Source of the DNA: Minisyncoccota bacterium
GTDB lineage: Bacteria > Patescibacteriota > Minisyncoccia > Phycocordibacterales > Phycocordibacteraceae
Reading direction: 5' to 3'
Assembly (NCBI GenBank): GCA_023653145.1
Contig: JAMNXM010000001.1
Location: 1-43,463, forward strand
DNA: 43,463 bases
Each line of letters opens with the position of its first letter. Position 1 is the first letter of the stretch. This document shows, one piece after another, positions 4,362 to 35,518 of this stretch. The notes below the pieces were generated by a model. That model was not told where the DNA came from and did no database searches. It saw only the letters and a program-made list of their open reading frames with translations. Made by a program: the position numbers and the translations under genes.

Positions 4362-4362
4362 C

Positions 4363-5430: not shown

Positions 5431-5431
5431 C

Positions 5432-6643: not shown

Positions 6644-6754
6644 GGTTTTCCACATTGGGTAAACTGCTCCATACGACGGGGGATACAATGGTAGAGACCT
6701 TGAAATAGGTATTTATTAATTACTACGCAGTAATCTTTACTCAGTATTCATAGT

Positions 6755-7216: not shown

Positions 7217-7232
7217 GTCTTGACTGCATTAT

Positions 7233-7266
7233 CCCCACCCTCTATACAAGGGTGGGGATTTTGTTT
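7233..7266 (+). terminator. Rho-independent terminator after pilin 1
   Basis: The stem is CCCCACCC / GGGTGGGG with a 9-nt loop, followed by ATTTTGTTTT. Confidence 0.75.
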
Positions 7267-7280
7267 TATAGTAAGTGCAT

Positions 7281-7745: not shown

Positions 7746-7761
7746 GTAGCACGCTACTAAT

Positions 7762-7790
7762 CCCCACACCGGAGTACCGGTGTGGGGATT
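7762..7790 (+). terminator. Hairpin after pilin 2 (probable terminator with a weak T tract)
   Basis: The stem is CCCCACACCGG / CCGGTGTGGGG with loop AGTA, followed by ATTGTGCTGT. Confidence 0.5.
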
Positions 7791-7809
7791 GTGCTGTACG
7801 CTGAAGTGT

Positions 7810-8262: not shown

Positions 8263-8265
8263 CGC

Positions 8266-10235: not shown

Positions 10236-10735
10236 ACCACACACGCACCGGATTCACACTACTTGAGACGCTTGTTGCTGTAGCAATCTTGCTGATGTCC
10301 CTTTTGGGGCCGTTTGCTATTGCGCAGCAGTCGTTAAAGAGTTCGTACTACGCACGCGATCAGGTGACCGCGTACTACTTGGCGCAAGAGGGAATAGAGT
10401 TTGTCCGTGCTGTCCGAGACCAAAATTATCTCTCTGCCGCTCCTTGGCTTGATGGTATTGGAGCCGTCTGCACTGACGTACCATGCGAAGTCGATTATCC
10501 AAACTTTACTTACAGTGCCTGCCAGAATGGCGTGTGTACGCCACTCAGAATTTCTGCTGCGGGAGGATTGTTTAATCACGCTACAGGCGAGCCGTCAAAG
10601 TTTACACGCACCGTCACACTCACACCCGTCGTCGGAAACCCCGAGAGTATGATCGTATCAGTAACCATTTCATGGCGCTCAGCCGGAGTGTCTCGCGTCT
10701 TTACCTTACAAGAGCGTTTATTTGATTGGCTATGA
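10232..10735 (+). CDS. Minor pilin / pseudopilin
   Basis: The N-terminus reads MNHTRTG|FTLLETLVAVAILLMSL, with Glu+5 present. Confidence 0.72.
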   Translation: MNHTRTGFTLLETLVAVAILLMSLLGPFAIAQQSLKSSYYARDQVTAYYLAQEGIEFVRAVRDQNYLSAAPWLDGIGAVCTDVPCEVDYPNFTYSACQNGVCTPLRISAAGGLFNHATGEPSKFTRTVTLTPVVGNPESMIVSVTISWRSAGVSRVFTLQERLFDWL

Positions 10736-11262
10736 AGTCCCCACGCGCATTCACTTCGACAAGCGACAGAGCATATGAAAGTCTGCTTTCATATGTATGG
10801 CGCGCCGTCGGAGCAAAACCACAAAGAGGTTTTACATTGCTCATGTCGGTTTTGATTTCGAGTGTGCTTCTTGCGCTCGGGTTTGAGATATACAACCTTG
10901 CATCTAAAGAGGTGATACTTTCATCCGCTGGTCGTGAGTCGCAGTTTGCGTTTTTTGCAGCAGACACTGGAGTAGAGTGTGCGCTCTGGGCGGACACAAC
11001 GCTCGACGCCTTTGCGACATCGTCACCTCTTACTGAAATCACGTGTGGCACAGCGCCGTCACTACTTACGCGAGTACAAAACGGCACCGACTACGTGAGC
11101 ACTTTTACCTTTACGTCGGGTGCGGGGAACAGTGCACAGTGTGTTGATGTACGTGTGACGCGTGGCGACCCCAAGCGTACCGTCATCGAGTCATTTGGTC
11201 ACAATACCTGCAACATTGCGGACCCGCGCCGCCTTGAGCGTGCCATCCGCGTGACGTATTAA
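10732..11262 (+). CDS. Atypical pilin-like protein (PilX-position) with a long N-terminal extension and no Glu+5
   Basis: The cleavage-site region reads ...AKPQRG|FTLLMSVLISSVLLALGF. I chose ATG 10732 because it overlaps the upstream TGA (ATGA); the track start at 10726 is TTG. Confidence 0.6.
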   Translation: MKSPRAFTSTSDRAYESLLSYVWRAVGAKPQRGFTLLMSVLISSVLLALGFEIYNLASKEVILSSAGRESQFAFFAADTGVECALWADTTLDAFATSSPLTEITCGTAPSLLTRVQNGTDYVSTFTFTSGAGNSAQCVDVRVTRGDPKRTVIESFGHNTCNIADPRRLERAIRVTY

Positions 11263-11265
11263 TAG

Positions 11266-13380
<2,115 letters not shown>

Positions 13381-13383
<3 letters not shown>

Positions 13384-13389
13384 TAGTAT
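13381..13389 (+). promoter_or_regulatory. Extended -10 box TGATAGTAT, 6 nt upstream of the gatC ATG (overlaps the ligA stop)
   Basis: Read directly from the sequence. Confidence 0.45.
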
Positions 13390-13395
13390 TTCGAC

Positions 13396-13689
13396 ATGGC
13401 AGTCACGACTGATGATGTAAAAAAACTGGCAGAGTTGAGTCGTCTCGCCCTCTCAGAAGGGGAGATAGAGAAGCTCCGCACAGAGATTGACTCTATAGTC
13501 TCTTATATTGATGCTGTGCAGAAAATCCCGCTTCCGGAAGGAGTGGCCCCGTCTCCACACCTCGATATAACTAACGTGATGCGCGACGATGTAGTCGCAC
13601 ACGAAGGGCAGGCGCACAGCGATGCGCTCACAGCACAGTTTCCTGATCGAGATGGCGATTACTTACGGGTGAAGAAAATTCTTGGCTAG
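13396..13689 (+). CDS. gatC: Asp/Glu-tRNA amidotransferase subunit C
   Basis: It is 97 aa, has the typical DVKKLAELSRLALSEGE start, and lies immediately upstream of gatA. Confidence 0.85.
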   Translation: MAVTTDDVKKLAELSRLALSEGEIEKLRTEIDSIVSYIDAVQKIPLPEGVAPSPHLDITNVMRDDVVAHEGQAHSDALTAQFPDRDGDYLRVKKILG

Positions 13690-13690
13690 T

Positions 13691-15097
13691 ATGGAACTTA
13701 CTGACCTTACGGCGCGCGCGCTTGCTGATGGATATAAGGCAAAGCAATTTTCAGTGCCTGATGTTATAAGTGCGTACCTACAGCGCATCGAAGCAGAGAA
13801 TCCAAAGTTGAATGCATACCTTGAGGTGTTTGATGACGCACGCGCCGCAGCTACAGTTGCACAAGAGCGCATCGTGCGCGGTACGGCGCACCCACTGACT
13901 GGTGTCCCGATAGCAGTCAAAGACAATATCTTGATTAACGGGAAGCGGGTGAGTGCGGCGTCAAAAATGCTTGAGAATTACACCGCAACCTATGATGCGA
14001 CGGCCATCAAGAAACTAAAGGACGCTGGCGCGGTGTTTCTTGGTCGCACCAATATGGACGAGTTCGCCATGGGCTCATCTACTGAGCATTCGGCATTTGG
14101 TCCGACACGAAACCCACACGATACTGCCCGCGTTCCTGGCGGCTCGTCTGGTGGTTCTGCCGCTGCAGTTGCGGCGCACCTCGCACCTATTGCGCTTGGG
14201 TCTGAGACGTGCGGCTCAATACGCCAACCGGCATCGCTGTGCGGACTTGTTGGATTTAAGCCGACGTATGGCGCGGTTTCGCGCTCGGGACTTATTGCGA
14301 TGGGGTCGTCGCTTGACCAGATAGGCCCATTTGCACGCACCGTAGCGGACGCCGAACTCGTGTTTAACACGATCCGTGGGTGTGACCCACTTGATGGTAC
14401 GACACTCGAAGACTACTCAGAGGGTGTAGCAAAAAACAAAAAAATTGGTGTACCACGTTCGTTCGTCAACGACGCACAACCTGAAACCAAAGTAGTGTTT
14501 GAAAAGAAACTGACCGAGCTAGCAGGGAAGGGGTACGACATTGTGGACATTGAACTACCGTCAGCACCCTATGCACTGCCTGCGTACTACATCGTAATGC
14601 CAGCAGAGGTATCGACGAACCTCGCACGCCTCGATGGCATGCGCTACGGACATCACGTGGATGGCATGAATCTTTTGGACGAGTATAAAAAGTCGCGCGC
14701 TGAAGGGTTTGGTCCCGAGACGCGACGCCGCATTATTTTAGGCACCTACATACTTTCGTCTGGATACTATGACGCATACTATCGACGTGCGACTGCGCTT
14801 CGCAGTATTATTGCTGCTGATTTGGCGCGCGCCTACGAGACCGTGTCATACATTGCAACACCAACAGCACCAGGTCCTGCGTTTAAAATTGGTGAAAAGG
14901 CTGACCCAGTATCGATGTACCTTGAAGATATTTTCTCAGCGCCAGCGAACCTCGCGGGACTCCCTTCGATTTCTGTACCGATGGGTACCGTGGCACGGGA
15001 CGGGAAGGACTTGCCAGTTGGGATACAGTTCATGACCCCAAAGCGCACCGACGCAACACTCTTTAGCGTTGCGCGCGATACACTGGGTGAGGCATGA
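13691..15097 (+). CDS. gatA: Asp/Glu-tRNA amidotransferase subunit A (amidase signature family)
   Basis: It has the amidase signature GGSSGGSAAAVAA and a catalytic Lys context (IAVKDNI). I chose ATG 13691, just after the gatC TAG; the track start at 13682 is TTG. Confidence 0.93.
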   Translation: MELTDLTARALADGYKAKQFSVPDVISAYLQRIEAENPKLNAYLEVFDDARAAATVAQERIVRGTAHPLTGVPIAVKDNILINGKRVSAASKMLENYTATYDATAIKKLKDAGAVFLGRTNMDEFAMGSSTEHSAFGPTRNPHDTARVPGGSSGGSAAAVAAHLAPIALGSETCGSIRQPASLCGLVGFKPTYGAVSRSGLIAMGSSLDQIGPFARTVADAELVFNTIRGCDPLDGTTLEDYSEGVAKNKKIGVPRSFVNDAQPETKVVFEKKLTELAGKGYDIVDIELPSAPYALPAYYIVMPAEVSTNLARLDGMRYGHHVDGMNLLDEYKKSRAEGFGPETRRRIILGTYILSSGYYDAYYRRATALRSIIAADLARAYETVSYIATPTAPGPAFKIGEKADPVSMYLEDIFSAPANLAGLPSISVPMGTVARDGKDLPVGIQFMTPKRTDATLFSVARDTLGEA

Positions 15098-22439: not shown

Positions 22440-24086
22440 ATGTCTCTACCAGAAGAACTAAAAAAAGTGGTGCGTGGTGAAGTTGATGACTCGCCAGAGG
22501 CGCGAGAGGCGGCAAGTCGTGACACGTCGCTCTACCGCGTGGTGCCAGAAGTGGTGGTGCGTCCCCTCGATACTCCCGATGTGCAAGCAGTGGTCCGCTA
22601 CGCGACTGAAGCAAAGAAAAAAGGAACCGCAATTTCTATAGTGGTGCGCTCGGCAGGTACCGATATGTCTGGAGGCCCCCTAGGCTCTTCCATCATCCTC
22701 GACATGACACGGCACTTTACCCGTATTATCGGCGTGGGAGATGGATACGCTGTTGTGGAGCCAGGGGTGTACTTCCGTGATTTTGATAAAGAAACTAAAA
22801 AGAAGAATCTTGAACTCCCCAGCTACACTGCAAGTCGTGAGATCTGTACGGTGGGAGGCATGGTCGCAAATAATAGCGGAGGCGAGAAGAATTTAAAGTT
22901 TGGGAAAACCGCGCGCTATGTAGAAGAACTTGATGTTGTTGGGTCAGACGGTCAGGTTCATACGTTTAAGAACCTCGAAGGCGATGCACTCGCCGCAAAG
23001 CTCAAGGAACCTGGGTTCGAGGGAGACCTGTATCGCGGCGTCTCAGAGATTTTGCAGAAACATAAAGCAGTGATTGCCGAGCATGCACCCAGTGTGGGCA
23101 AAAACTCTTCAGGCTATGCGCTCTGGGCGATAGGAGACGGGGTCACAAAACTCAATCTCGCTCGTCTTATGGTAGGGGCACAAGGAACGCTCGGAATTCA
23201 TACGCGTATCCGTTTCAAACTGGTACAACCAAAGCCGTATGCGGCGATGACGGTGGTGTTTCTCAAAGATCTTACCCAACTTGCCTCTGTTATTCAGCGC
23301 ACATTAATCCGCGAGCCAGATTCGTTTGAGTCATACGACGACAATACCTTTACGCTCGCGACCAAGTATTTCCCAGAACTTGCCCTTCAGATGAAACTTG
23401 GGCTCATAAAGCTTGGCATCTCGTTCCTGCCTGAAGTGTGGATGCTCCTTACCGGCGGTATTCCTAAGTTGGTGTTGATGGCAGAGTTTCGTGCCGATAC
23501 GCAAGAGGCAGCACTGCAGAAGGCGACACAGTTAGCGGCTGAGATTTCTGCGGAGCATCCAGCCATGAAGGTGCGTGTTGCACCGAGCGAGGCTGCTGCG
23601 CGCAAGTATTGGGTGATCCGCCGCGAAAGCTTTAATCTCTTGCGCAAGAAGGTACGCGGTAAGCGCACTGCGCCATTTATTGACGACTTCGTAGTACCTC
23701 CAACCAAACTCCCTGAGTTTCTCCCTAGGCTTGAGACTATCCTTGGGAAGTACGACCTCATGCACACCATTGCGGGGCACGTCGGCGACGGCAATTTCCA
23801 TATCATTCCGCTCATGGATCCAAACCGTCCTGATGGTCGCGAGATTATAGAGAAGATGGGTAAGGAGGTGTATGACTTAGTCCTCGAGTACCATGGGTCA
23901 ATCTCTGGGGAGCATAACGACGGGTATGTGCGCACCCCCTACGTCGAACAGATGTTTGGCTCGGAGATGTATGCGCTATTTAATCAGATCAAGAAGCTCT
24001 TCGACCCCTTGAACATCTTTAACCCCGGCAAGAAGGTAGGTAGTACCTACGCCGAGTCCGCTACGCACCTCGACCTTGGCAACTGA
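22440..24086 (+). CDS. FAD-binding oxidoreductase (GlcD / D-lactate dehydrogenase-like, PCMH-type FAD domain)
   Basis: It has an N-terminal FAD-binding domain (VVRSAGTDMSGGPLG, CTVGGMVANNSGGEKNLKFG) and a C-terminal FAD-oxidase_C-like region (GHVGDGNFH, SGEHNDG). Confidence 0.8.
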   Translation: MSLPEELKKVVRGEVDDSPEAREAASRDTSLYRVVPEVVVRPLDTPDVQAVVRYATEAKKKGTAISIVVRSAGTDMSGGPLGSSIILDMTRHFTRIIGVGDGYAVVEPGVYFRDFDKETKKKNLELPSYTASREICTVGGMVANNSGGEKNLKFGKTARYVEELDVVGSDGQVHTFKNLEGDALAAKLKEPGFEGDLYRGVSEILQKHKAVIAEHAPSVGKNSSGYALWAIGDGVTKLNLARLMVGAQGTLGIHTRIRFKLVQPKPYAAMTVVFLKDLTQLASVIQRTLIREPDSFESYDDNTFTLATKYFPELALQMKLGLIKLGISFLPEVWMLLTGGIPKLVLMAEFRADTQEAALQKATQLAAEISAEHPAMKVRVAPSEAAARKYWVIRRESFNLLRKKVRGKRTAPFIDDFVVPPTKLPEFLPRLETILGKYDLMHTIAGHVGDGNFHIIPLMDPNRPDGREIIEKMGKEVYDLVLEYHGSISGEHNDGYVRTPYVEQMFGSEMYALFNQIKKLFDPLNIFNPGKKVGSTYAESATHLDLGN

Positions 24087-24098
24087 GTGTAGTTCGGG

Positions 24099-24104
24099 TA
24101 TAGT
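24099..24104 (+). promoter_or_regulatory. -10 box TATAGT, 6 nt upstream of the L25 ATG 24111
   Basis: Read directly from the sequence. Confidence 0.45.
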
Positions 24105-24790: not shown

Positions 24791-26158
24791 ATGCGGTCCC
24801 TTTTTGTGTTCCTCGCTTTTTCTGTTGTCCTAAGTGCGAGTGCGCTGTTGACCCCGATTCATGCTGAGGCATTTTTGACTGACCAAGACCGGACACGACT
24901 TGAGGAAGAGTATCAGAAGATCCAGACAGAGATAGCCGAGTGGCAGAAAGTCTTGGATGAGACGCGGGCAAAAAAGAATACCCTCCAAGGTGACGTCACG
25001 TCTCTGAACGCCCTAATAAAGAAGGCTGAGGCAGAAATACGCCAGCGCGGCGTATCGATTTCAAAACTCTCCGATGAGATTAAACGGAAGACGGAACTCA
25101 TATCCTCCTACGAGGAGCGACTCGAGCGCGGGCGGGAGTCCTTGGCTGAGATGCTCCGTAAACAGCAAGAGGCAGATGAACGCTCGCTGGCTGAACTGGT
25201 ACTCTCTGCCGATACGTTCTCGACCCTTTATGGAGACATCGAACTCATTGCGGTGGTGCGGAGAGACTTACAACTTTTGTTCCATGAGGTACGTGAAATA
25301 AAAGAGTTGACCGAGGAGGAGAAGAAAAACCTTGCCGCGCGACGCGACCAGGAACTTGATGCAAAATACGACGTTGAGCAGAGTAGAAAACAGATTGCTC
25401 AAAACGAGGCAGAGAAAAAGAAACTTTTAAACATCACGAGAGACCAAGAGAAAACCTACTCGACGGTGCTTGCAGAGCGCCAGCGGAGAGCAGAGCAGAT
25501 ACGGAGCGCACTCTTTCCACTCCGCGACACTGAAGGTATATCGTTTAGTGTTGCGCTCGACGCCGCAAGTCGCGCAAGTCAGGCAACCGGGGTGCGTGCG
25601 TCTCTTATCCTCGCGATCCTCTCGCAAGAATCCGATTTGGGTAAAAATGTGGGTTCTTGCTATGTGACCGATCTCGAGTCGGGAGATGGGGCAGGGAAGA
25701 ACACAGGCACGGTATTCCAGCGTGTGATGAAATCGCCCCGAGACACGCAGCCGTTTGAGCGCATCACGAACGCCCTCGGACTTCCGTGGGCAGTGACTCC
25801 AGTGTCGTGCCCGTTGGGGAGGATCTATACGGCAAACCGTGGGTTCGGTGGAGCGATGGGCCCGTCCCAATTTATTCCTTCGACCTGGCAGTTGTATGAG
25901 GCTCGGCTTTCCGATAAGTTGGGCGTCCAGACAGCAAACCCATGGGACGCGCAGCACGCCATTATGGCGACGGCTCTCTACCTCGAGGACCTTGGTGCAG
26001 ATGGGGCAACGTACACAGCAGAGCGGAATGCCGCCTGCCGCTACTACTCGGGCCGCTCCTGCGACAATCGACGCCCGTCAAACTCGTTTTATGGAGATTC
26101 TGTGATAAAAAAAGCGGAATCGTTCCAAGAGAACATAGACTTTCTTAAGAACATTTAG
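24791..26158 (+). CDS. Secreted coiled-coil protein with a C-terminal lytic murein transglycosylase (MltB/SLT_2-like) domain
   Basis: It has a signal peptide (MRSLFVFLAFSVVLSASALLTPIHAEA) and about 230 aa of heptad-rich coiled coil. The C-terminal part contains LAILSQESDLG (catalytic Glu context) and GGAMGPSQFIPSTW...DAQHAIMATALYL. Confidence 0.75.
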   Translation: MRSLFVFLAFSVVLSASALLTPIHAEAFLTDQDRTRLEEEYQKIQTEIAEWQKVLDETRAKKNTLQGDVTSLNALIKKAEAEIRQRGVSISKLSDEIKRKTELISSYEERLERGRESLAEMLRKQQEADERSLAELVLSADTFSTLYGDIELIAVVRRDLQLLFHEVREIKELTEEEKKNLAARRDQELDAKYDVEQSRKQIAQNEAEKKKLLNITRDQEKTYSTVLAERQRRAEQIRSALFPLRDTEGISFSVALDAASRASQATGVRASLILAILSQESDLGKNVGSCYVTDLESGDGAGKNTGTVFQRVMKSPRDTQPFERITNALGLPWAVTPVSCPLGRIYTANRGFGGAMGPSQFIPSTWQLYEARLSDKLGVQTANPWDAQHAIMATALYLEDLGADGATYTAERNAACRYYSGRSCDNRRPSNSFYGDSVIKKAESFQENIDFLKNI

Positions 26159-26199: not shown

Positions 26200-26208
26200 T
26201 GGTACTAT
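26200..26208 (+). promoter_or_regulatory. Extended -10 box TGGTACTAT, 9 nt upstream of ATG 26218 (candidate promoter of the giant-protein operon)
   Basis: Read directly from the sequence. Confidence 0.4.
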
Positions 26209-26217
26209 TCGCGTAGT

Positions 26218-26901
26218 ATGCCACCCACCACTGGTGCTCCTATTACTCCTACGTTAGGGCGCATGCCAAAACTCGGACCATCCGGAATGGATCGTCGGGG
26301 TCAGGCACTCCTCACGTTTATTACCCTCACCTTTACTGTAAGCGCGGTGTATGTTGCGTTCATTGCCGCATCCTTTGGAGATGCTCGAATTCTCGTTATG
26401 ACGGAAGACGGAGTTCGTACGATTGAAACCATTTCACTCGGGACAGGGGAGCGAACAGTTACCGCACGGGACACCGAGATCAACGCAAGCGTCTTCAATA
26501 CGTTCTACATGCAAGACGGTACTGCAATTACTGTCGATAGCCCTGGTATTGTTCGTAAAAATGGTACCGATGTAGAAAGCACCGTGGTGCTCGTTGCCTC
26601 TCCGGTCCCCGCAACAGACCAAACGCCGCTTGCAGTGTGGAACGACGCCGCGCGCATTGCGTGGGTCAGTCCATCCGACGGCTCACTCCAGGTGTTTGAG
26701 CGGAATGCACGTGGCGCATACGCCCCTCTGTTTATAGATCAGAATTTGTCAGTAGAGTCACTCCAGTTTGCTAAGGACGGGCAGTCGCTCGTTGTTTCAA
26801 TCGCGTACGGTGCCCAAAGCGAAGTTGCAGTTCTTTCTCTTGCAACCGGTGAACTTGAGCCGGTCGCTGCCATCCCAGGGTTTGTATCCGTTCTTCCATA
26901 A
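26218..26901 (+). CDS. Membrane-anchored PD40/TolB-like repeat protein, cassette copy 1
   Basis: It has an N-terminal TM helix (ALLTFITLTFTVSAVYVAFIAASF). Its C-terminal half aligns with ORF 29794-30714 (PLAVWNDAARIAWVSPSDGSLQVFE vs PFAVSLDGMRVAWAAPADKSLQVFE). The start is uncertain (26218, 26263 or 26287). Confidence 0.6.
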   Translation: MPPTTGAPITPTLGRMPKLGPSGMDRRGQALLTFITLTFTVSAVYVAFIAASFGDARILVMTEDGVRTIETISLGTGERTVTARDTEINASVFNTFYMQDGTAITVDSPGIVRKNGTDVESTVVLVASPVPATDQTPLAVWNDAARIAWVSPSDGSLQVFERNARGAYAPLFIDQNLSVESLQFAKDGQSLVVSIAYGAQSEVAVLSLATGELEPVAAIPGFVSVLP

Positions 26902-26903
26902 CT

Positions 26904-29792
26904 ATGAAATACTTCTTTGCACTCACACTTTTTGTACTCGCAAGTACAGGGACCGCGCACGCATTCGCTGTTGTTGAAAACGCACAATGCGTCGGCGGGA
27001 CATTAGTCGCCTCGCACACTGATGTGATTGATGGAGGGGGGCTCGCGCCATACACGAACGCAAAAATTTTGGTTGCATCGGACTGTTCTATGCTCACTCC
27101 TGCGGGCGGGTGCTGTTCAGCAAAGGTTTCAACAAATGGCGGCGGAAAAGGCGGCGCTGTTATCCCCTATACATGGTTCCATTACGACATTTTCACTAAT
27201 GCAACAGTTCAGACCGGGTTTGCCGCCGGTCAGACGGGTCCGCTTGCAAATGAAGCCCCCTTTGAGAGGGCTGTCGGTAGACAGTTTAAGTATTTTGCTG
27301 GTCCGGGAGGTGGTGCTGCGGTGCCAGTGACGGCATCCTTGGTAGCCAACCCAACTGCAATTGGTTCAGGAGAGCAGGCGCTCTTGTCGTGGTCCTCAAC
27401 TGGTGCGGCCACCTGTGTCGGAACGAATTTTTCAACGAACGGCGCAACATCCGGGTCTGTAGTTACCACACCATCTGCAACGACACGCTACTCAATCACC
27501 TGCTCAGCAGCGTCAGCAACACCGCGACCAACTATCATTGACATGAACGCTGATGGCGGGTCATATCAGTCAAACGCAGCATTGATTACTGATATGCAAC
27601 AGAATGGAGGGGTTGCGTTCAGTTCGAGGTACGGGATCTATTCCGACAGTGCAACGACAGACCGTATCTGCAAGATGGTCCACGGCCCAAATGCAACGCA
27701 AGCTGGCTTTGACGTGACAAAGTACAAATCGCCTAAGAACAATGCCATCGTGAAGTGGGACGGTACCAAGTGGATAGCGTTCGGTGCGCGCTCTGATAAT
27801 CGCAAGATCCGCTATGTATTTAAGTGTAGTGTCCCAGGAACGGTGAGCACCACGTCTGGTGAAAGTGCAACCGCGCATGCCACCGTACAAGTTTCTGCTG
27901 TAAATACGCTGAACGTTTCGTGTCGTGCTCACCCAGGACGCGCAGGGTTTAATGAGGACGTACTCTGGTCTTCGACTGTATCTGGTCCCGCAGGTACCTA
28001 CGCCTACTCCTGGACTGGGACAGACTCGTTGTCAGGCACAGGCAACCAGGTCTTTACGCGCTACACCACGCCAGGGGAGAAGAAGGCATGGCTTACAGTA
28101 ACGTACACTCCAGGTACAACACCGCCACCAGCGCAGGCGCAACAAAGTATTGGTGGGTATGAATGGAAGTCCACAGAGAGTTCGCTCGAGGAAACGTGTA
28201 CTGGTGGCGGAGCAAACTTTTTGCCACGATGCCCATCACCACTACCCGCATGTACTGCTGAGAATGTGAATACTACATGCTGGAACGTTCAAGGCAGCGG
28301 AAGCGGAGAGTGTAATCCTAAACTTGCTGCAGAGTTTGGCCTCGTAACTCAAGTTTCCTGCACAGCACCTTCTGCGGGCGTTTTACCCCCTCCACCACCA
28401 ACCAATCCGCCTTCTGGCGCAGTACTGCCAAAGCCAAGTGCATGTCCTGCAATTGCGTGGGCTGTACCCATCACACCTTGTGGCGGCACCTGGGCGCCAT
28501 CATACGACGCAGCTGGGTGCCAAAGTGGTTGGCAGTGCGTTGCCTCTGAGGCACGCCGTACTGAGTTCTACTCGCAAAGTACTGTGTTGCAAAAAATACA
28601 GCACGTAGCTCGTATTGCAGAAAAAGCAATTACAAACGCCACTATTTTGCCTGCCGTATATGCACAGGAGGCGTGCATTCCACCAGGAGAGTACGTTGTG
28701 GATTCGCCAAATGTCACTGCACAAGTTGCGCTTACGCTACTAGATGAGCCGCGGTGCTGCTCTCAGACTGCCCTAACAGGGGGTGAATACTTTAATGATA
28801 TTGTCTGCAGCGGTACCGGTGGCGTTGCAGGTCAGTGTTCGGCAGGGCAAACGGCAGTAGCTGTGTTTAATCCTCAGGGCGCAAGTTGTGCCGGAGGTTC
28901 TGTGGTTGGTAGAACAAGTGAAGTCCTTGATGGTGTTCAGATTGGTATGTGGCCAGATGGTTGGCTTGCGGGTCAGTGTGCTGAACTTGGCGCACAAGCA
29001 GGGGATTGCTGTGAGTATTCGCAGCGCGCAAGTAACAATACGGGTGGCGGGTTCCCACCAAACTCGTACTACCAGATTCGCGTCATTCGTGGAGGATCAT
29101 TTTCAGCGAGCGAATCATCATATATTCAGACTCCACAATGTTCAGGTCTCAATCAGAATTACTCGTGCAGTTCTGTCGCAGGTAGTGTAAGCACGCAGTG
29201 CTCAGGTGGGCCAGGAGACCCACCACCGCCACCTCCACCACCACTCGGTGCCCAGCGCGTAACGGTGCAATGCGACAACTCAGTTACTGTCGGTACTGGA
29301 GAGGGTGAGGACACGAACCAATGTACTGATGGCATAGACAATGACCGCGACGGCCGCACCGATGCAGATGACACAAACTGTGCTAATGGTGGCAGAAGTG
29401 AAAGTGGTGTCACGACACAATGTTCTGACGGCATCGACAACAACGGAGACGGTACCATCGACTTCCCGGAAGACCCATGGTGCGCCTCAGGAAACGACAA
29501 TCGAGAGGCTCCAGACCCAATCGACATGACGCTCACCGGGCCTGCGCTTATCAAGAAGAATCAATCCTGCACCATCTCACTTTCAGCACGGAACGTCACT
29601 TCGTGCACCTTGAGTGGCCCAGGACTCTCGCAAGGATTCACTGCGATTAATGGGTTTGTAAGCGCGTCATCTGTGGTGACTCCTGCTCTTGCACAGACGT
29701 CAACCTATACGCTCAGTTGTCGCGGACTAGACGGTAAGACTGCTGCAAAGTCGGTCGACTGCAAAGTTGCACCAACCTTCGAAGAGTTCTAG
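26904..29792 (+). CDS. Giant secreted Cys-rich multidomain surface protein 1 (962 aa)
   Basis: It has a signal peptide (…STGTAHA|FA). The domains are: two copies of a C-x-GG...CC[SE] module, an Ig-like repeat (LSWSS..C.GTNFST), a TDRICK domain, a PKD-like domain (YAYSWTGTDS), a P8 tract, two QC-x-DGIDN-x-x-DG Asp-rich motifs, a final Ig-like domain, and an APTFEEF tail. Confidence 0.85.
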   Translation: MKYFFALTLFVLASTGTAHAFAVVENAQCVGGTLVASHTDVIDGGGLAPYTNAKILVASDCSMLTPAGGCCSAKVSTNGGGKGGAVIPYTWFHYDIFTNATVQTGFAAGQTGPLANEAPFERAVGRQFKYFAGPGGGAAVPVTASLVANPTAIGSGEQALLSWSSTGAATCVGTNFSTNGATSGSVVTTPSATTRYSITCSAASATPRPTIIDMNADGGSYQSNAALITDMQQNGGVAFSSRYGIYSDSATTDRICKMVHGPNATQAGFDVTKYKSPKNNAIVKWDGTKWIAFGARSDNRKIRYVFKCSVPGTVSTTSGESATAHATVQVSAVNTLNVSCRAHPGRAGFNEDVLWSSTVSGPAGTYAYSWTGTDSLSGTGNQVFTRYTTPGEKKAWLTVTYTPGTTPPPAQAQQSIGGYEWKSTESSLEETCTGGGANFLPRCPSPLPACTAENVNTTCWNVQGSGSGECNPKLAAEFGLVTQVSCTAPSAGVLPPPPPTNPPSGAVLPKPSACPAIAWAVPITPCGGTWAPSYDAAGCQSGWQCVASEARRTEFYSQSTVLQKIQHVARIAEKAITNATILPAVYAQEACIPPGEYVVDSPNVTAQVALTLLDEPRCCSQTALTGGEYFNDIVCSGTGGVAGQCSAGQTAVAVFNPQGASCAGGSVVGRTSEVLDGVQIGMWPDGWLAGQCAELGAQAGDCCEYSQRASNNTGGGFPPNSYYQIRVIRGGSFSASESSYIQTPQCSGLNQNYSCSSVAGSVSTQCSGGPGDPPPPPPPPLGAQRVTVQCDNSVTVGTGEGEDTNQCTDGIDNDRDGRTDADDTNCANGGRSESGVTTQCSDGIDNNGDGTIDFPEDPWCASGNDNREAPDPIDMTLTGPALIKKNQSCTISLSARNVTSCTLSGPGLSQGFTAINGFVSASSVVTPALAQTSTYTLSCRGLDGKTAAKSVDCKVAPTFEEF

Positions 29793-29793
29793 C

Positions 29794-30714
29794 ATGGTAG
29801 ATGTGCGCGCACTCCTTACCAGTCACGAAGCACGGCTCACACTTTTTGGTGTTGTGTGTGCTGTCGTTCTTGGGTCAGTAGTACTTTGGCTCTACTTCGT
29901 TATTCCCGTCAAAGGAACTGCCTCTGCGACTCTGGTGCAGCCGGATCGCTCACAACGGGCAGTTTCTATCACGCTTTCTACAATGGCATGGGAGGGGTAT
30001 CGATTTCGCTCTGCTGAACGGTCATTCATTGTTGCCGCAGTACCAAGTCCAACTAATGATCGAGTAGCATACGTCACACGAACTAAGGACAAAGTAATGC
30101 GCGTGTCTGTTGCGGACGGTGATGGCGACGGTGGAGTAGAGGTCACGTCTGGTGAAACAGGTATTCCAAGTTGGTCACCTGATGGTGGAAGTATTGCGGT
30201 ATCACGTGTGCCAGACGGCGTCACTGAGACCGGAGTCCCAGAGAATTGGTCAGTCGTCCGAGCACTGCCACGTGGTGACTCACTCGAAGTGGGTCGAGGT
30301 TACCGCCCGTTTCCATCACCAAATCAGAGGACGTTTGCACTCACATCAGACGGCATCGCCCTTTTATCGTACAGCGATACTGAGCCGCTCCTTGTCATAG
30401 CAAGTCCAGTTCCGGTGCCACTTACCACCCCATTTGCAGTGTCATTAGATGGTATGCGCGTTGCGTGGGCTGCACCAGCCGATAAGTCACTCCAAGTGTT
30501 TGAAAATGTAAATGGCTACTTTATCCCGCTTCTTCTCAAGACTGATGTGCATCCAGACTCGCTCGCGTTTTCGCCCGATGGGGACTATCTATTAGTTTCG
30601 AAGAATACCGAAGCGACATCGACACTGAGTATTGTGCGCATATCTGACGGACGGACGCGCTTGGTGGGGGAGATAGGTGGCTTGGTCAAACTTCATGCAT
30701 GGCTCTATGAATAG
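29794..30714 (+). CDS. Membrane-anchored PD40/TolB-like repeat protein, cassette copy 2
   Basis: It has a TM helix (LTLFGVVCAVVLGSVVLWLYFVI) and PD40 signatures (IPSWSPDGGSIAVS, LAFSPDGDYLLVS). ATG 29794 lies 1 nt after the upstream TAG. Confidence 0.7.
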   Translation: MVDVRALLTSHEARLTLFGVVCAVVLGSVVLWLYFVIPVKGTASATLVQPDRSQRAVSITLSTMAWEGYRFRSAERSFIVAAVPSPTNDRVAYVTRTKDKVMRVSVADGDGDGGVEVTSGETGIPSWSPDGGSIAVSRVPDGVTETGVPENWSVVRALPRGDSLEVGRGYRPFPSPNQRTFALTSDGIALLSYSDTEPLLVIASPVPVPLTTPFAVSLDGMRVAWAAPADKSLQVFENVNGYFIPLLLKTDVHPDSLAFSPDGDYLLVSKNTEATSTLSIVRISDGRTRLVGEIGGLVKLHAWLYE

Positions 30715-33700
30715 GAATTATATTAAACAGGTACTTGTCGTTGGGATTATCGGTGCTTGGTTCGCGTTAGTACCTAGTGTACTTGCGTTAGACTCAAAGT
30801 TTGTAGCGCTTATCGATAGGGTAGATGGAGGAGGAATTGATGGCGGTGGAGATTTTGGATGGGAGTATCCAGAAATTTATTTCTTCACCGCTTCGCCTGC
30901 ATCAGTAACTTCAGGGGGCAGCGTCACACTTTCGTGGAGTGCAAGTCTTGGCTCATGCGTCGGAACAAATTTTACTGCGGGGTCACTTGACGGTACGCGC
31001 ACAGTAAATCCGACCGTTACGACTACCTATACACTGACTTGTTCAAACGTGTACGGGAGTGATACATCTTCAGCCACAGTATCTGTTGCATCCGCTACGA
31101 GTGATTTGACCGCAGGAGGCGTTACCCCAAGTAGTGGGGTAGTTGGAACTCCGGTGTCATTGTCAGCGACCGTGTCAAACATTGGTGGTGCTTCGACAGG
31201 TGCTGGGTTTACGAATCTCTTCCAGCGTGCGACAGATGCGTCTGGCTCAAACCCTACGGACATTGGCACACACTCGGGCTCAGCACTTGCGGCAAGCGGG
31301 TCAGCGGCCGCAACAGTTTCATATACATTTCCGTCTGCGCAAACGTGGTACGTGCGGGTCTGTGCTGACAAAAATTCAGCGTCTTCTGCAGGAACAATCA
31401 CCGAATCAAACGAAGGGAACAATTGCGGTGCGTGGTCTCTAGTGTCGGTGTCGGCAGTTCCGGGCGCACCAACCATAACGATCGCGGCCAATCCGTCGAA
31501 TATAACGAGTGGTCAGTCAGCAACGCTCACCTGGTCATCGTCAAACGCAACCACATGCACGGGCACCGGGTTTAGTACGGGTAACCAAACCTCTGGTTCA
31601 GTATCAGTTTCGCCAACTGCAACACAAATTTATTCAATTTCTTGTAGTGGTGTTGGTGGGACAGGAACGGGGAGCGCAACAGTAACAGTTGCGACGGCGC
31701 CAACCGCAACAACGCAAAACGGCAAGCTCTGCTCTGGTGGAACGTATATTGGCGCAACGACTGGCACCACAAACAGTTGCGTCTCATACTGTACTTCGGT
31801 AAATGCAAGTTGTTGTAGTACGTATTACACCTACGGAGATTATGCGAACGACTACGCCTGCTACGCATTCTCAAATACCTCGTCTGTCATTAATGCCCCC
31901 ACAACTGGCGGATGCGATTTTGGAGATGGAGGTGGATTCAGTGTCGATGGAGGTGCTGGGGGAGACCCTATCTGTACGTGGACGGACTACTCCGCAACGT
32001 TGCTTAGTTATGGCCCAGCGGTAACTGCGAGTCTCGTAACTAATCCGACCAGTATTTCTGCGGGACAACCCGTTATTATTACGTGGTCGTCTGCCAACGC
32101 CACGTCGTGCACGGGTACTAACTTTTCGACTGGAGGCGCAACGAGCGGTTCAGTTTCGGTAAATCCGACACTTACTACGGTGTACACACTCTCCTGTACT
32201 GGGGCAGGTGGGACTGCTACTGACACAAAGACACTCACGGTAAACGTATTTACTGCAACCTGCTCTGCAACTCCGAATCCCGTCACGGTTAACCAGCCCG
32301 TTTCGTGGTCGTCTGCTGCTACCGGTGGTACAGGGTCATACACGTACTCATGGAGCGGGAGCGATAGTCTTACAGGGTCAACAGCATCTCTCACCAAAAC
32401 GTACGATACATTGGGAGAAAAGGTTGCAACACTGACCGTTACGTCTGGCTCCGAGACGATTACTACGGCATGTACGGGCACTCCATGCCAACAGGCTTCG
32501 TGTACCTGTTCAGGTGGTGGGTGTGGAGTCACAGTGAGGGAGGGCATTAGTACTGACGTGTCCGCAGGTGCACCAGTCATAAATTCAGGAACTCCAATCC
32601 CAGGAGGTACGCTTACGTTTAGTGCTCCCGTGTTAAACATCGGAAATAATTCTATCTCAAGCGTCTTTCAGAATCGCTTTCAGATAGATGTGGGGAACGA
32701 TGGGAGTTACAACGTCACTCTCGATACTGGAGGGTCTGCTGGGTCGCAGTTTGTCCTTGGCTATGGTCAAAAATGTACGGGTGGCAGTGTAGTTGCCACA
32801 GATTCTATCGATACGTACGGAACCGGAGATCTATCCGACACCATACAGTCGATGTGTGAGCAGAGTTCATCAAGTGGTCAATGCTGCAGTGCAACTATTA
32901 CCACGCAGGGTGGTGGAGGTGGTGGCGGAGGAGGTGGTGGCGGAGGAGGTGGTGGGATCCAAGATTGGGTGGGGCGATTTACTGAGCGCAATGTTGCTGC
33001 GGTGTATAAAAGCCTTGCACTCACTTCGTATACCATTGACCTTACGGTGCGCTCAGGTGCATGGACACAGCAGGTGTGCACAACCGAAGCCTGCTATTTC
33101 GGCACCTGGCAATCATTGACCGGAACACAGTTTGATATCCCGTTCGGACAAACTGGAGGTTCAGTAAGTCCGTCGTGGACCAATGTGCCTGCGGGTACGC
33201 ACAAGGTGCGTATGTGTACCGACAGCCCAACGTCGCAACTCAGTGAGACGGATGAGGGTAACAACTGTGGGGCAGACACGGTCTTTACAGTAAGTGGTTT
33301 TGACCTGAGTGCAGGTACTCCAGGAGTAAACTCGGGGACGCTCCTTGGTGGGCAGGCAGTAACCTTCTTTGGCTCTATCTCAAACAACCCTGCGTACTAT
33401 GTTGCGACAGGACAGTGCCAAGCTGCGGTCTATGTTACGCAGGGTGGGACGTGTGCACTCACACTGAGTAAAGATCAATTGGTGTGGTCAACATCAGGTG
33501 CAACTATTGTCAGTGAGATAGCGCCGTTGACTAATTCTCCGACCATTCCTGCAACGGGAGGTGGTGGGATTATTGAGCGCGATATGAATACCTACACGAC
33601 GCCGTATTACAACGCGGACTCGAGACTTATTGCAGACATGGCGGCCAATGGTGTGACCTATACAGATGATGGTATACACACAGGTGACAACAAATCGACA

Positions 33701-35188
33701 GACCGTATCTGTAAGGTTGTGTATGATGCTGCAGCGTGGGTCTCGGCGTTTGATGTTACTAAATACAATTCATGCGGCAACAATACGATAGTACGACACA
33801 ACGGGACTTCGTGGAGTAAAATTGGTGCCTGCTCGGATAACAGAAAAGTTCGATATACATTCAAGTGTGCGAAACTCGGGTCTCCGTATGCGTTCTCTGG
33901 CACGCACGTATTCCCGACGCCGCTCGCTCCGGGGACACACACCTATTCAATGACCACAAATGCGTGCTCTGGCTCTGCGCCAGCAACCACCATAACTCTT
34001 CAAAGTGGTGCGCAATGCACTGGCGGTACACAAGTCGCACAAGATAACGATCTAGTAGACGGTGCGGCATTTTCAAATGGACTTGATGCTATCCGAATGC
34101 AGTGTGAGTCTATGACTCCCGCGGGCGGTTGTTGTAGCGTTGTTGTAGAAGAGACCCTTGCGCATCCAAACCAACCAGTGGAGACTCGGTATACGTATCG
34201 CGCCTATACGGGAGCATCGACTGTACCGCAGACATCAACAACTGAGTATATTGCAGGAGATAGAACTATAAATACACACTATTTTGCGGGTACATATGCA
34301 GGAACATGTAGTACTTCGTGTATAGCCTCGATTACAGTTCCTGAGCCTGGAAGCACTATGTGTTCACTCACCACAACACCTTCAGTCATTTCTTCCGGAG
34401 GTAGCGCAACTCTGTCGTGGGAAACAAGTAACGCGTCGGCGTTCTCTATAGACAATGGGATTGGTGCGGTGACCCCAGTAGGAGCAGGGAGTCGCTCGGT
34501 GTCGCCAACACAGACAACAACGTATACTGGCACGGTAACCACGGACCCAGGCGTATTTGCGCTCACTGGTACTGTGCCTAACCAATTCCAAATCGATCTG
34601 GGTAATAACGGCACCTGGGACGTGACGCTTTCGGGCACCGAACTTGCTACGCTCGGGGTCAATCAGTCCGCACAAGTCACGTCAGTTTCATGGACTGCGG
34701 TAGCAGGCACACATGCAATACGCCTTTGTGCGAATACGCCAAGCGCTATCAGCGAAGGGGATACGACGAACAACTGTGGTAACTCGTTTACCTTTACCGT
34801 GACGCCACCGACGCAGTGTCAGGACGGTGTCGATAACAATGGCAACGGCCTCATAGACCTTGCAGATCCCGCATGTACAGGCACTGGAGACACCGCAGAG
34901 GAGACGTTCTCTGATGCGGCACTCTCACTCTCTGTAAACCAAACGACGGTGCGGAGCGGTGCGTCAGTGACCTTAACCTGGACTGCGGTGGATGTTGTTG
35001 ATGACTCATGCTCGATTGTAGGGTCTACTGGGGGCACGTGGGCAGTAAGTGGTTCGGGTGGAACGCAGGTAGTGGGGCCAGTCACGGCAGAGACCACCTT
35101 TGCGCTTCGCTGTCGCGATATGCAAAACAACGAGGTAGTAGAGGCTGAGACGACGGTCCGCCTTGCACCTAAGTTCGAGGAGATCTAG
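30707..35188 (+). CDS. Giant secreted Cys-rich multidomain surface protein 2 (~1493 aa)
   Basis: The signal-peptide start is MNRNYIKQVLVVGIIGAWFALVPSVLALD, and ATG 30707 overlaps the upstream stop. It has five Ig-like repeats and three CARDB-like domains (…ESNEGNNCG, ETDEGNNCG, EGDTTNNCG), two of which are interrupted by insertions. It also has three C-x-GG...CCS modules, a G16 tract, a PKD-like domain, a TDRICK domain, a QCQDGVDNNGNG motif and an APKFEEI tail. Confidence 0.85.
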   Translation: MNRNYIKQVLVVGIIGAWFALVPSVLALDSKFVALIDRVDGGGIDGGGDFGWEYPEIYFFTASPASVTSGGSVTLSWSASLGSCVGTNFTAGSLDGTRTVNPTVTTTYTLTCSNVYGSDTSSATVSVASATSDLTAGGVTPSSGVVGTPVSLSATVSNIGGASTGAGFTNLFQRATDASGSNPTDIGTHSGSALAASGSAAATVSYTFPSAQTWYVRVCADKNSASSAGTITESNEGNNCGAWSLVSVSAVPGAPTITIAANPSNITSGQSATLTWSSSNATTCTGTGFSTGNQTSGSVSVSPTATQIYSISCSGVGGTGTGSATVTVATAPTATTQNGKLCSGGTYIGATTGTTNSCVSYCTSVNASCCSTYYTYGDYANDYACYAFSNTSSVINAPTTGGCDFGDGGGFSVDGGAGGDPICTWTDYSATLLSYGPAVTASLVTNPTSISAGQPVIITWSSANATSCTGTNFSTGGATSGSVSVNPTLTTVYTLSCTGAGGTATDTKTLTVNVFTATCSATPNPVTVNQPVSWSSAATGGTGSYTYSWSGSDSLTGSTASLTKTYDTLGEKVATLTVTSGSETITTACTGTPCQQASCTCSGGGCGVTVREGISTDVSAGAPVINSGTPIPGGTLTFSAPVLNIGNNSISSVFQNRFQIDVGNDGSYNVTLDTGGSAGSQFVLGYGQKCTGGSVVATDSIDTYGTGDLSDTIQSMCEQSSSSGQCCSATITTQGGGGGGGGGGGGGGGGIQDWVGRFTERNVAAVYKSLALTSYTIDLTVRSGAWTQQVCTTEACYFGTWQSLTGTQFDIPFGQTGGSVSPSWTNVPAGTHKVRMCTDSPTSQLSETDEGNNCGADTVFTVSGFDLSAGTPGVNSGTLLGGQAVTFFGSISNNPAYYVATGQCQAAVYVTQGGTCALTLSKDQLVWSTSGATIVSEIAPLTNSPTIPATGGGGIIERDMNTYTTPYYNADSRLIADMAANGVTYTDDGIHTGDNKSTDRICKVVYDAAAWVSAFDVTKYNSCGNNTIVRHNGTSWSKIGACSDNRKVRYTFKCAKLGSPYAFSGTHVFPTPLAPGTHTYSMTTNACSGSAPATTITLQSGAQCTGGTQVAQDNDLVDGAAFSNGLDAIRMQCESMTPAGGCCSVVVEETLAHPNQPVETRYTYRAYTGASTVPQTSTTEYIAGDRTINTHYFAGTYAGTCSTSCIASITVPEPGSTMCSLTTTPSVISSGGSATLSWETSNASAFSIDNGIGAVTPVGAGSRSVSPTQTTTYTGTVTTDPGVFALTGTVPNQFQIDLGNNGTWDVTLSGTELATLGVNQSAQVTSVSWTAVAGTHAIRLCANTPSAISEGDTTNNCGNSFTFTVTPPTQCQDGVDNNGNGLIDLADPACTGTGDTAEETFSDAALSLSVNQTTVRSGASVTLTWTAVDVVDDSCSIVGSTGGTWAVSGSGGTQVVGPVTAETTFALRCRDMQNNEVVEAETTVRLAPKFEEI
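32909..32956 (+). repeat. In-frame GGN tract encoding 16 consecutive glycines (contains a 15-nt unit GGAGGTGGTGGCGGA repeated twice plus a partial copy)
   Basis: I read the codons directly: GGT GGT GGA GGT GGT GGC GGA GGA GGT GGT GGC GGA GGA GGT GGT GGG. Confidence 0.95.
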
Positions 35189-35489: not shown

Positions 35490-35518
35490 GCGCTACACTT
35501 ACCTTGTAGCGCTTTTTT
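35490..35518 (+). terminator. Rho-independent terminator after rpmE, ending 2 nt before the prfA ATG
   Basis: The stem is GCGCTACA / TGTAGCGC with a 7-nt loop, followed by TTTTTT. Confidence 0.75.

Follow-up and report, generated by a model that had tools for sequence, protein, structure and literature searches.

Several described systems bear comparison with a cassette of four genes in a 43,463-nucleotide (nt) stretch of contig JAMNXM010000001.1 (the window), in which two small membrane-anchored proteins (A1 and A2) are each encoded directly upstream of a giant secreted protein (B1 and B2). We propose that A is a dedicated membrane partner, an anchor that would hold B on the cell surface as its cargo, and we put the probability of this reading at roughly 0.45. 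By fold, the nearest relative of the A proteins is TolB of the Tol-Pal system (TIGR02800; PDB 7mx5, 2w8b, 1crz, and 2ivz), which like A2 is a six-bladed PD40 propeller on the extracytoplasmic side. The TolB propeller fold binds partner proteins and short peptides, namely Pal and the disordered TolB box peptides of colicins, and this is the kind of interaction that we propose for A. Unlike TolB, however, A has a membrane helix in place of the soluble N-terminal alpha/beta domain, and its partner would be a giant secreted mosaic protein. A2 is not TolB, since it lacks the TolB N-terminal domain, its TIGR02800 score is far below the cutoff of 343 bits (A2, 27.1 bits, expect value (E) 1.9e-6; A1, 15.4 bits), and no tolQ-tolR-tolA-tolB-pal genes occur in the window or in the related loci examined. 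Saccharibacteria, the lineage to which the names of related records assign this DNA, are commonly regarded as having no outer membrane.

The logic of the cassette is that of the surface layer (S-layer) of the Sulfolobales, in which the large, anchorless secreted protein SlaA is encoded beside, and co-transcribed with, SlaB, a small protein that crosses the membrane once and keeps SlaA in place. SlaB differs from A in consisting of beta-sandwich domains and a coiled coil with a C-terminal anchor, it is archaeal, and there is no relation in sequence or fold; unlike SlaA, the B proteins are Cys-rich and highly variable in length. Sortase-anchored adhesins of the MSCRAMM type resemble B in having a signal peptide, chains of immunoglobulin (Ig)-like, PKD, and CARDB-type domains, and a conserved C-terminal signal, but B has no LPXTG motif, hydrophobic segment, or basic tail and ends instead in a free P-x-F-E-E-Φ carboxyl end. 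Substrates of the type IX system of Bacteroidota carry a conserved terminal Ig-like beta-sandwich (the C-terminal domain) on diverse secreted proteins as a shared address label, in which they are like B; they belong to another phylum, however, no type IX machinery was found in the window or the examined stretches of the loci, and no sequence relation was detected. Finally, an archaeal surface-layer protein with a YVTN propeller and PKD domain (PDB 1l0q; Foldseek rank 29 for A2) also places a propeller together with PKD/Ig modules on the cell surface, though as one fused chain, whereas A and B are split into two coupled genes with the propeller proximal to the membrane. The small acidic disulfide repeat of NF033662 proteins is present once or twice just before the terminal Ig domain of B1 and B2, below the curated cutoff, and as a small part of B it is silent on the A-B pairing.

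Two pairs of an anchored propeller and a secreted mosaic

The four open reading frames (ORFs) follow one another on the + strand from 26218 to 35188 almost without spacing and constitute two paralogous pairs. An earlier note on this DNA, made from the sequence alone, had placed them at the same coordinates with the same junctions, which are TAA-CT-ATG between A1 and B1, TAG-C-ATG between B1 and A2, and an 8-nt overlap, ATGAATAG, by which the start of B2 overlaps the stop of A2. The tandem duplication of a two-gene unit that it had described is confirmed by both members of the pair. A1 and A2 are 39% identical over 118 amino acids (aa) in BLASTP (E 3e-20), and the profiles of their families (11 clusters for A1 and 28 for A2) align in hhalign with an E of 3e-32, with a gap opposite about residues 76-177 of A2, from which A1 corresponds to A2 minus about 90 central residues, or roughly two blades. 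B1 and B2 share a TDRICK domain (49% identity, E 9e-22), an Ig-like repeat (54%, E 5e-16), a PKD-like region, and a C-x-GG...CC module, in an order that is partly collinear and partly not, and their acidic disulfide repeat, C-terminal Ig domain, and tail align at E 8e-11.

The AlphaFold model of A2, built from a 28-sequence alignment (predicted local distance difference test score, pLDDT, 90.4; predicted template modeling score, pTM, 0.83), has a single membrane helix (residues 11-35) and, right behind it from residue 42 on, 24 strands that form six blades. When this model is compared with the PDB in Foldseek, TolB is on top (7mx5_A, E 3.4e-11, template modeling (TM) score 0.66) with other TolB entries next (E 3e-11 to 5e-9, TM 0.65-0.68 for the TolB matches), followed by the YWTD propellers of the LDL receptor and other six- or seven-bladed propellers, and the entries matched include TolB/Pal and TolB/colicin-peptide complexes. 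At the sequence level, PD40 (Pfam PF07676) reaches E 5.8e-4 and 20.2 bits in A2 against a gathering cutoff of 20.9, and several A2 homologues have precomputed matches to PF07676 or PF26549; A1 has no Pfam match. As judged from the model, A2 is a six-bladed TolB-type PD40 propeller tethered to the membrane by its N-terminus, and it follows by homology that A1 would be a shortened propeller; the PD40 beta-propeller that the earlier note had predicted for both small proteins thus stands as a full fold for A2, while A1 lacks the central residues. From the basic residues that precede the helix, and the positive-inside rule, the propeller is predicted to lie outside the cell. The ectodomains of A1 and A2 contain zero Cys and no thioredoxin-like motif.

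The cytoplasmic N-terminus of A1 (residues 1-26, MPPTTGAPITPTLGRMPKLGPSGMD) is 100% identical in the sister genome, where the ectodomain is 44-68% identical, and an MPP...ITP start recurs in several members of the A1 family; this N-terminus could be a cytoplasmic contact site, or its conservation could reflect a constraint on translation initiation. The A2 protein ends in a conserved Y-E (or N-E), encoded by TAT-GAA or AAT-GAA, which holds the ATG of B2, and the same junction is found in three related loci (L001, L002, and L004).

B1 and B2 are secreted acidic mosaics (isoelectric points (pI) 4.8 and 4.3) with 40 and 50 Cys in their mature forms, an even number in both, amounting to 3.4-4.2% of residues, and they are rich in Thr, Ser, Gly, and Ala. 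The even Cys count and acidic pI of B, together with the Cys-free ectodomains of A, fit an extracellular chain. Neither protein contains an LP.[TSA]G motif, and nothing follows the terminal PTFEEF (B1) or PKFEEI (B2). B carries no signal of the PEP-CTERM, PGF-CTERM, GlyGly-CTERM, or MYXO-CTERM type (no helix behind the tail and no match to an NCBIfam sorting domain), and neither B protein has a C-terminal helix of any kind. There is no lipobox Cys, as the signal peptides end in AHA before F in B1 and in VLA before L in B2, with the first Cys at residues 29 and 84, and no wall-binding domain (SLH, CWB2, LysM, and similar) was matched in either protein by Pfam or NCBIfam at E up to 0.1. Sequence searches of the PDB returned nothing for B1, and for B2 only low-complexity matches to its Gly run.

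What the B proteins have in common at their C-terminal end is a distinct Ig-like domain followed by a short tail. The terminal Ig domain of every B matches its own profile at 1e-14 to 1e-41, compared with 1e-3 to 1e-11 for the internal repeats. The tail is P-x-F-x-E-Φ and then the stop codon, with P, F, and E invariant in 19 aligned proteins, and all 13 clusters of B1 orthologues end in AP[TS]F[EQ]E[FI]. When ORFs of at least 100 aa in all six frames of the window and of loci L001-L012 were scanned, all 22 B-type ORFs fitted the pattern P.[FY].[EQ].$, and none of the others among the 481 ORFs did. At the position between P and F, B1 orthologues carry T or S (K in one locus) and B2 orthologues carry K, R, Y, F, or I, and a residue specific to the paralogue would fit cognate recognition. 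A search of 1.84 billion representatives with the terminal-Ig profile gave 15,077 matches, mainly to a ubiquitous Ig-like repeat in many kinds of protein, including proteins that end in a hydrophobic stretch and Arg-rich tail; with a tail-like end in 4 of the top 150, this search measures the repeat and not the tail, and it therefore cannot give the spread of the tail. In the same profile search, a second C-terminal flavor, [FW]-x-E-[IV] plus two or three residues (REIAPR, WEEVAP, WIEVNP, WQEVGL, and YREVGL), was seen at the end of Ig-repeat proteins P0075, P0151, P0152, P0173, P0176, P0190, P0227, and P0242, and it may be a related terminal signal.

Conservation and rapid evolution of the pairs

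For comparison, related loci were fetched and coded L001 to L017. The gene order L25, SLT (a lytic transglycosylase gene), A1, B1, A2, B2, L31, prfA, rpsB, tsf is preserved in L001, L002, L004, L007, and L008, and partly in L006 and L009, with A2 identity across these loci ranging from 98% down to 38%; the two closest relatives lie on contigs of 758 and 766 kb. Orthologues of B1 measure 469-1101 aa and those of B2 780-1487 aa, reflecting gain and loss of modules with the terminal domain retained. A unit consisting of an anchored PD40-type protein and a tail-bearing B occurs twice in the window and also in L001, L002, L004, L006-L013, and L015-L017. A is followed by B with overlapping or nearly abutting stop and start in the window, L001, L002, L004, L006, L007, L008, and L009, and equally in the more distant L010, L011 (twice), L012, L013 (A2/B2), L015, L016, and L017. 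The surroundings and copy number of the unit differ among the distant loci: L010 and L012 have one A-B pair; L011 has a duplicated three-gene unit; L013 has an A2-like/B2-like pair together with a B1-like gene; L014 has an A-like gene, two small B-like genes, and then B; L015 has B-A-B next to ddl; and L016 and L017 have A-B with overlapping stop and start, in L017 directly before rpsB. The unit has been duplicated as a unit at least twice independently, as seen in the clade of the window, the three-gene unit of L011, and the B-A-B arrangement of L015. The fixed pairing asserted by the earlier note is accordingly conserved in the related genomes examined, although not without the exceptions that are weighed below.

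The small proteins of the distant loci are recognizable as A-like by profile. BLAST finds no link between them and A1 or A2, and single distant sequences are weak or negative against the A1 and A2 profiles (E 6.6e-4, 0.23, and 0.24), whereas a profile of six distant A-like proteins aligns with the A2 family at an hhalign probability of 96.7% (E 4e-10) over blades 3-5. The distant small proteins are thus remote A2 homologues, and one protein superfamily travels with one tail-bearing class across lineages over which A2 identity drops from 98% to below the reach of BLAST.

The rate of evolution of all four cassette genes is four- to tenfold above that of their flanks. In the sister genome L001, A1 is 65%, B1 77%, A2 80%, and B2 80% identical, compared with 95-100% for the flanking proteins, and the nonsynonymous rate (dN) is 0.13-0.30 for the cassette compared with 0.00-0.03 for the flanks. 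The ratio of dN to the synonymous rate (dS) in the cassette is 0.05-0.16, and because dS is saturated (0.4-3.2) these ratios are rough. Taken together, dN, dN/dS, and the identities indicate four genes that are real, constrained, and accelerated together, as would be expected of surface proteins that are exposed and interacting yet remain under constraint. The SLT protein, 95% identical in the sister genome, is not accelerated and evolves at a housekeeping-level rate.

Some of the related loci also differ in their details. In L013 (4545-7969), the B1-like protein has 657 aa and a tail LPSFQEF and is encoded behind a 481-aa protein that is not of the A1 type; the B2-like protein of that locus has a degenerate tail, GFEER. 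Each copy of the L011 unit (6190-14702) encodes a hydrophobic protein of 280 or 284 aa, an A-like protein of 304 or 311 aa, and a tail-bearing B of 692 or 464 aa, in that order, and the two hydrophobic proteins are 40% identical to each other and have no Pfam match. An apolipoprotein N-acyltransferase-like gene lies between the L011 copies, and an LNT-like gene is also found inside the L014 locus.

Feature map, modules, and neighboring genes

The features of the region are collected in Table 1. The common domain set that the earlier note had assigned to the two giants is found for TDRICK, Ig-like, C-x-GG...CC, QC-x-DG-x-DN, and the tails, whereas the PKD domain (PKD_4, PF18911) is below the gathering score in both (15.2 bits in B1 and 19.8 in B2 against 27) and can be called PKD-like only. 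CARDB (PF07705) passes its gathering score in B2 (49 against 22.7 bits), and B1 has none. The acidic disulfide repeat NF033662 (acid_disulf_rpt) scores 35.7 bits in B1, in two stretches, and 27.6 bits in B2 against the curated cutoff of 41. The Gly run of B2 is a length-variable linker within a partial CXGG module.

Table 1. Positions of genes, protein features, and candidate signals in the window
Feature	Position	Strand	Details
Type IV pilus gene cluster	12-11262		complete
Promoter-like site	24076-24104		best of the region, 5' of L25; 10/12 matches
Ribosomal protein L25 gene	24111-24761		upstream of cassette
SLT gene	24791-26158	+	secreted coiled-coil protein with C-terminal lytic transglycosylase domain; Pfam SLT_2 E 3e-9; MltB and SMC-type coiled-coil matches
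A1	26218-26901	+	227 aa
A1 cytoplasmic N-terminus	26218-26295		residues 1-26
A1 transmembrane helix	26305-26373	+	sequence, ALLTFITLTFTVSAVYVAFIAAS; aligns with A2 helix in hhalign; basic cytoplasmic N-terminus before it
B1	26904-29792	+	962 aa
B1 signal peptide	26904-26963	+	sequence, MKYFFALTLFVLASTGTAHA; no lipobox Cys
B1 CXGG module 1	26970-27308	+	C-x-GG-T...D...C...G-x-CC...YFAG, about 110 aa; jackhmmer E 3e-45
B1 internal Ig-like repeat	27312-27548	+	C-terminal Ig profile, hmmsearch E 1e-4; 54% identical to B2 repeat
B1 TDRICK domain	27540-27848	+	about 100 aa; 49% identical to B2 copy, E 9e-22
B1 PKD-like domain	27891-28121	+	Pfam PKD_4 E 0.022, below cutoff; aligns with B2 PKD region, E 1e-12
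B1 CXGG module 2	28872-29210	+	jackhmmer E 2e-28
B1 two acidic double-disulfide repeats	29313-29483	+	QC-x-DG-x-DN...C; NCBIfam NF033662 E 5.3e-9
B1 C-terminal Ig-like domain and tail	29478-29789	+	profile E 2e-39, against 1e-4 for internal repeat
B1 tail PTFEEF	29772-29789	+	free C-terminus
A2	29794-30714	+	306 aa
A2 transmembrane helix	29824-29898	+	model helix, residues 11-35; sequence
A2 propeller ectodomain	29917-30705	+	24 strands, six blades; without Cys
A2/B2 junction (A2 terminal Y-E, B2 ATG)	30700-30714		
B2	30707-35188	+	1493 aa counted from ATG
B2 signal peptide	30707-30787	+	sequence
B2 CARDB domain	31100-31426	+	Pfam PF07705 E 7.5e-13, two stretches
B2 PKD-like domain	32273-32464	+	Pfam PKD_4 E 8e-4, below cutoff
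B2 run of 16 Gly	32909-32956	+	imperfect GGN repeats; 5 Gly at same place in sister genome
B2 TDRICK domain	33581-33886	+	pairwise match to B1 copy
B2 CXGG module	33998-34297	+	jackhmmer E 2e-26; extra partial copy at residues 685-743
B2 acidic double-disulfide repeat	34808-34882	+	NF033662 E 1.8e-6
B2 C-terminal Ig-like domain and tail	34871-35185	+	profile E 6e-32
B2 tail PKFEEI	35168-35185	+	free C-terminus
Terminator-like hairpin	35490-35512		strongest of the region, just 3' of L31; 8 pairs and T run

Two Cys-rich modules recur in the B proteins. The CXGG module is found in 42 instances across B proteins by jackhmmer, and its C, GG, D, C, CC, and G columns are invariant. Every B protein from a locus with the L25...L31 gene order of the window has it, as does the nearest outgroup, L010, whereas none was detected in L011 or L012. 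Its AlphaFold model (pLDDT 86.3, pTM 0.80) consists of long beta-hairpins packed against a helix, and Foldseek finds no relative of this fold in either the PDB (best E 1.3) or BFVD (best E 0.25). The TDRICK domain, in 21 instances, has four Cys in most copies and two in B1, and it is present in some of the B proteins and also in a small number of secreted proteins that are not of the B type, so that it is a mobile module not confined to B; it has no Pfam match and no sequence match in the PDB. Among its other carriers are the large secreted proteins P0049, P0059, and P0061, in which it sometimes occurs twice and whose C-terminal ends differ (...VKLALAQAFEILR).

An uninterrupted operon had been proposed by the earlier note, and the tight packing of the genes speaks for it, as does the location of the best promoter-like and terminator-like sites outside the cassette. 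These two sites would frame one transcript, L25-SLT-A1-B1-A2-B2-L31, but neither class of site is above shuffled expectation in the scans. A Shine-Dalgarno-like motif (GGAG, GAGG, AGGA, or AAGG) is absent from the 20 nt before each of seven starts (24791, 26218, 26904, 29794, 30707, 35225, and 35521), and translation of the cassette may rely on stop/start coupling or on leaderless-like initiation. With site counts at the shuffled level and no Shine-Dalgarno motif, it is the gene packing that carries the proposed operon structure. Base composition is even across the window and so gives no sign of recent acquisition.

The cassette lies directly downstream of the coiled-coil lytic transglycosylase gene, as previously described, and the SLT_2 domain was found in its product, which has about 200 residues of coiled coil and then the SLT_2/MltB-type domain. 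We take this layout to recall that of the coiled-coil wall hydrolase partners EnvC, PcsB, and RipC, which are activators of division hydrolases. The SLT gene is directly 5' of the A/B genes in all L25...L31 loci examined (L001, L002, L004, L007, L008, and L010-L014), and L31, prfA, rpsB, and tsf follow the cassette downstream. At the other end of the window is a complete type IV pilus gene cluster encoding PilM, a PilO-like protein, the PilB and PilT ATPases, the PilC platform, a prepilin peptidase, three major-type pilins with N-methylation motifs, and further minor pilins. Type IV pili are known host-attachment organelles in Saccharibacteria. A link of the cassette to this cluster was considered and rejected, because the two are about 15 kb apart with unrelated genes between them and no such cluster is present in the examined stretches of the related loci.

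An anchor-cargo model, its alternatives, and what they mean

Since the B proteins have no known retention signal and the A proteins have a membrane helix and a propeller that would be exposed, we propose that B is held by A. The wide recurrence of the A-then-B order, the homology of the distant small proteins to A2, the specificity of the tail and terminal Ig domain for B, and the joint acceleration of the four genes also speak for this. In this model, A would be fixed in the cytoplasmic membrane by its one N-terminal helix with the PD40 propeller outside the cell, and B, exported by way of its Sec-type signal peptide, would fold into a long, disulfide-stapled chain of Ig-like, CARDB, and PKD-like modules and the family-specific CXGG and TDRICK modules. 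The C-terminal end of B, comprising the acidic disulfide repeat, the Ig-like domain, and the tail, would bind the propeller encoded directly upstream, giving a non-covalent anchor-plus-fiber complex with its components matched in amount via translational coupling, and the outer modules of B, which are variable, would point toward the environment as coat, adhesin, or both. An old tandem duplication would have led to the two cognate pairs. A role as host adhesin is plausible, being compatible with the fast evolution and modular make-up of B.

A more specific version, in which the propeller of A binds the terminal domain or tail of B, is tentative and should be held with considerable reserve; here the duplication would yield cognate anchor-cargo pairs whose exposed parts diversify fast in an arms race with hosts or phages. 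It is likewise less probable than not that P-x-F-E-E-Φ and its Ig domain are a new surface-display signal of Saccharibacteria, and perhaps of Patescibacteria more widely, which would work with no cleavage, transpeptidase, or lipid by docking on a TolB-type propeller encoded upstream.

Several observations weigh against the anchor-cargo model or its tail-docking version. The pairing of A and B is the rule but is not absolute, in that a tail-bearing B (P0066, in L012) has no adjacent A gene, the B1-like gene of L013 is preceded by the gene for another kind of membrane protein, one that combines a signal peptide with a C-terminal helix, and in L014 the two small B-like genes separate the A-like gene from B. 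The tail is far better conserved than the A proteins, which is unexpected if A is its sole receptor, and it could instead cap the last Ig domain as an intrinsic part of it. The block conserved between A1 and A2 may be the mere structural core of a PD40 blade, and the conservation of the terminal Y-E of A2 may stem in part from the overlapping start codon of B2. Finally, the fixed position within a housekeeping block fits a constitutive envelope component at least as well as an adhesin.

This last point leads to an alternative that shares the anchoring idea and differs on the role of B, according to which the pairs are a constitutive structural coat or wall-spanning scaffold, an analogue of an S-layer with its membrane stalk, serving envelope integrity rather than host contact. 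Such a role would agree with a locus that is fixed between genes for ribosomal proteins and translation factors and vertically inherited across the clade, with a best promoter-like site 5' of L25 and a best terminator-like hairpin 3' of L31 (these matches being no better than shuffled sequence), with the acidic, Thr-, Ser-, Gly-, and Ala-rich composition of B, with the gene for a wall-cutting enzyme that always adjoins, and with the SlaA/SlaB logic of a large outer protein and a small membrane partner. S-layer proteins are typically Cys-poor, however, which does not suit the Cys content of B, and the size range of B, 414 to about 1500 aa as modules are gained and lost, is hard to square with a lattice; moreover, no lattice-forming or wall-binding domain was detected with Pfam or NCBIfam. 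On balance we consider the coat unlikely.

A different division of labor would make A a transient assembly or quality-control factor, which receives the exported disulfide-rich B, aids its folding or its threading through the wall, and then releases it, so that B is kept by something else or shed. The evidence of pairing, coupling, and co-evolution applies to this possibility as well, the 40-50 Cys of B need correct pairing, and the existence of B proteins that are orphans or otherwise partnered means that A is not strictly needed beside each B. The A proteins, however, have neither Cys nor a thioredoxin-like motif, PD40 propellers are not known to act as foldases, and the coupled one-to-one gene order suggests a stoichiometric rather than a catalytic partner; this role, too, appears unlikely.

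It is quite improbable that A acts like TolB in a reduced system of envelope maintenance or division together with the adjacent SLT protein, with B as a neighbor that has a separate role. TolB is indeed the best fold match of A2, the SLT gene is always immediately upstream, and the arrangement of coiled coil and hydrolase domain resembles that of EnvC, PcsB, and RipC; but the TolB N-terminal domain is missing, no TolQRA or Pal genes occur in the window or the loci examined, the TIGR02800 score is 27 bits against the cutoff, the rate of A exceeds that of the SLT gene four- to tenfold, and A is paired with B even at a different locus (L015, beside ddl). Least probable of all is that there is no functional link and that fast-evolving envelope neighbors are kept together by a compact, rarely rearranged genome, because, small and syntenic as Saccharibacteria genomes are and conserved as the whole 20-kb neighborhood is, the A-B order with its overlapping stop and start persists in altered surroundings (the inserted genes of L011, ddl in L015, and rpsB in L017) and the unit has repeatedly been duplicated whole.

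The components of the anchor-cargo model are familiar, both as folds (the PD40 propeller and chains of Ig, CARDB, and PKD domains) and in the logic of joining a big surface protein to a small partner in the membrane, for example SlaA/SlaB. The A-B pairing, the signature of terminal Ig domain and tail, and the two Cys-rich modules are without match in the curated families, structures, and literature that were searched. No description of the pairing was found in the literature on surface or propeller proteins of Saccharibacteria, in agreement with the statement of the earlier note that it is not a described system, and a 2023 Cell paper on Southlakia contains no mention of a propeller, TolB, S-layer, surface layer, Ig-like domain, or lytic transglycosylase. 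On present sequence and model evidence, the cassette probably serves to keep large proteins at the cell surface in a manner not described so far, and there is a realistic chance that it represents a new surface-display mechanism.

The lineage is of an episymbiont type, as the earlier note had surmised, and Saccharibacteria, like other Patescibacteria, live attached to bacterial hosts. To our knowledge, almost nothing has been described of the surface make-up of Patescibacteria or of how they retain proteins there, apart from type IV pili. In this setting, the cassette is a concrete candidate for a sortase-independent anchor-cargo pair; in one clade it is conserved, evolves fast, and seems to be an obligatory component of the genome. 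The terminal Ig domain with P-x-F-x-E-Φ provides a simple signature by which surface proteins of uncultured relatives could be catalogued, and the B proteins contribute two family-specific Cys-rich modules, one of which (CXGG) has a confidently predicted fold with no relative in the PDB or BFVD. The variable outer modules of B are natural candidates for determinants of host range or for phage receptors. If the pairs are instead a structural coat, they would still be the first named envelope scaffold of the lineage.

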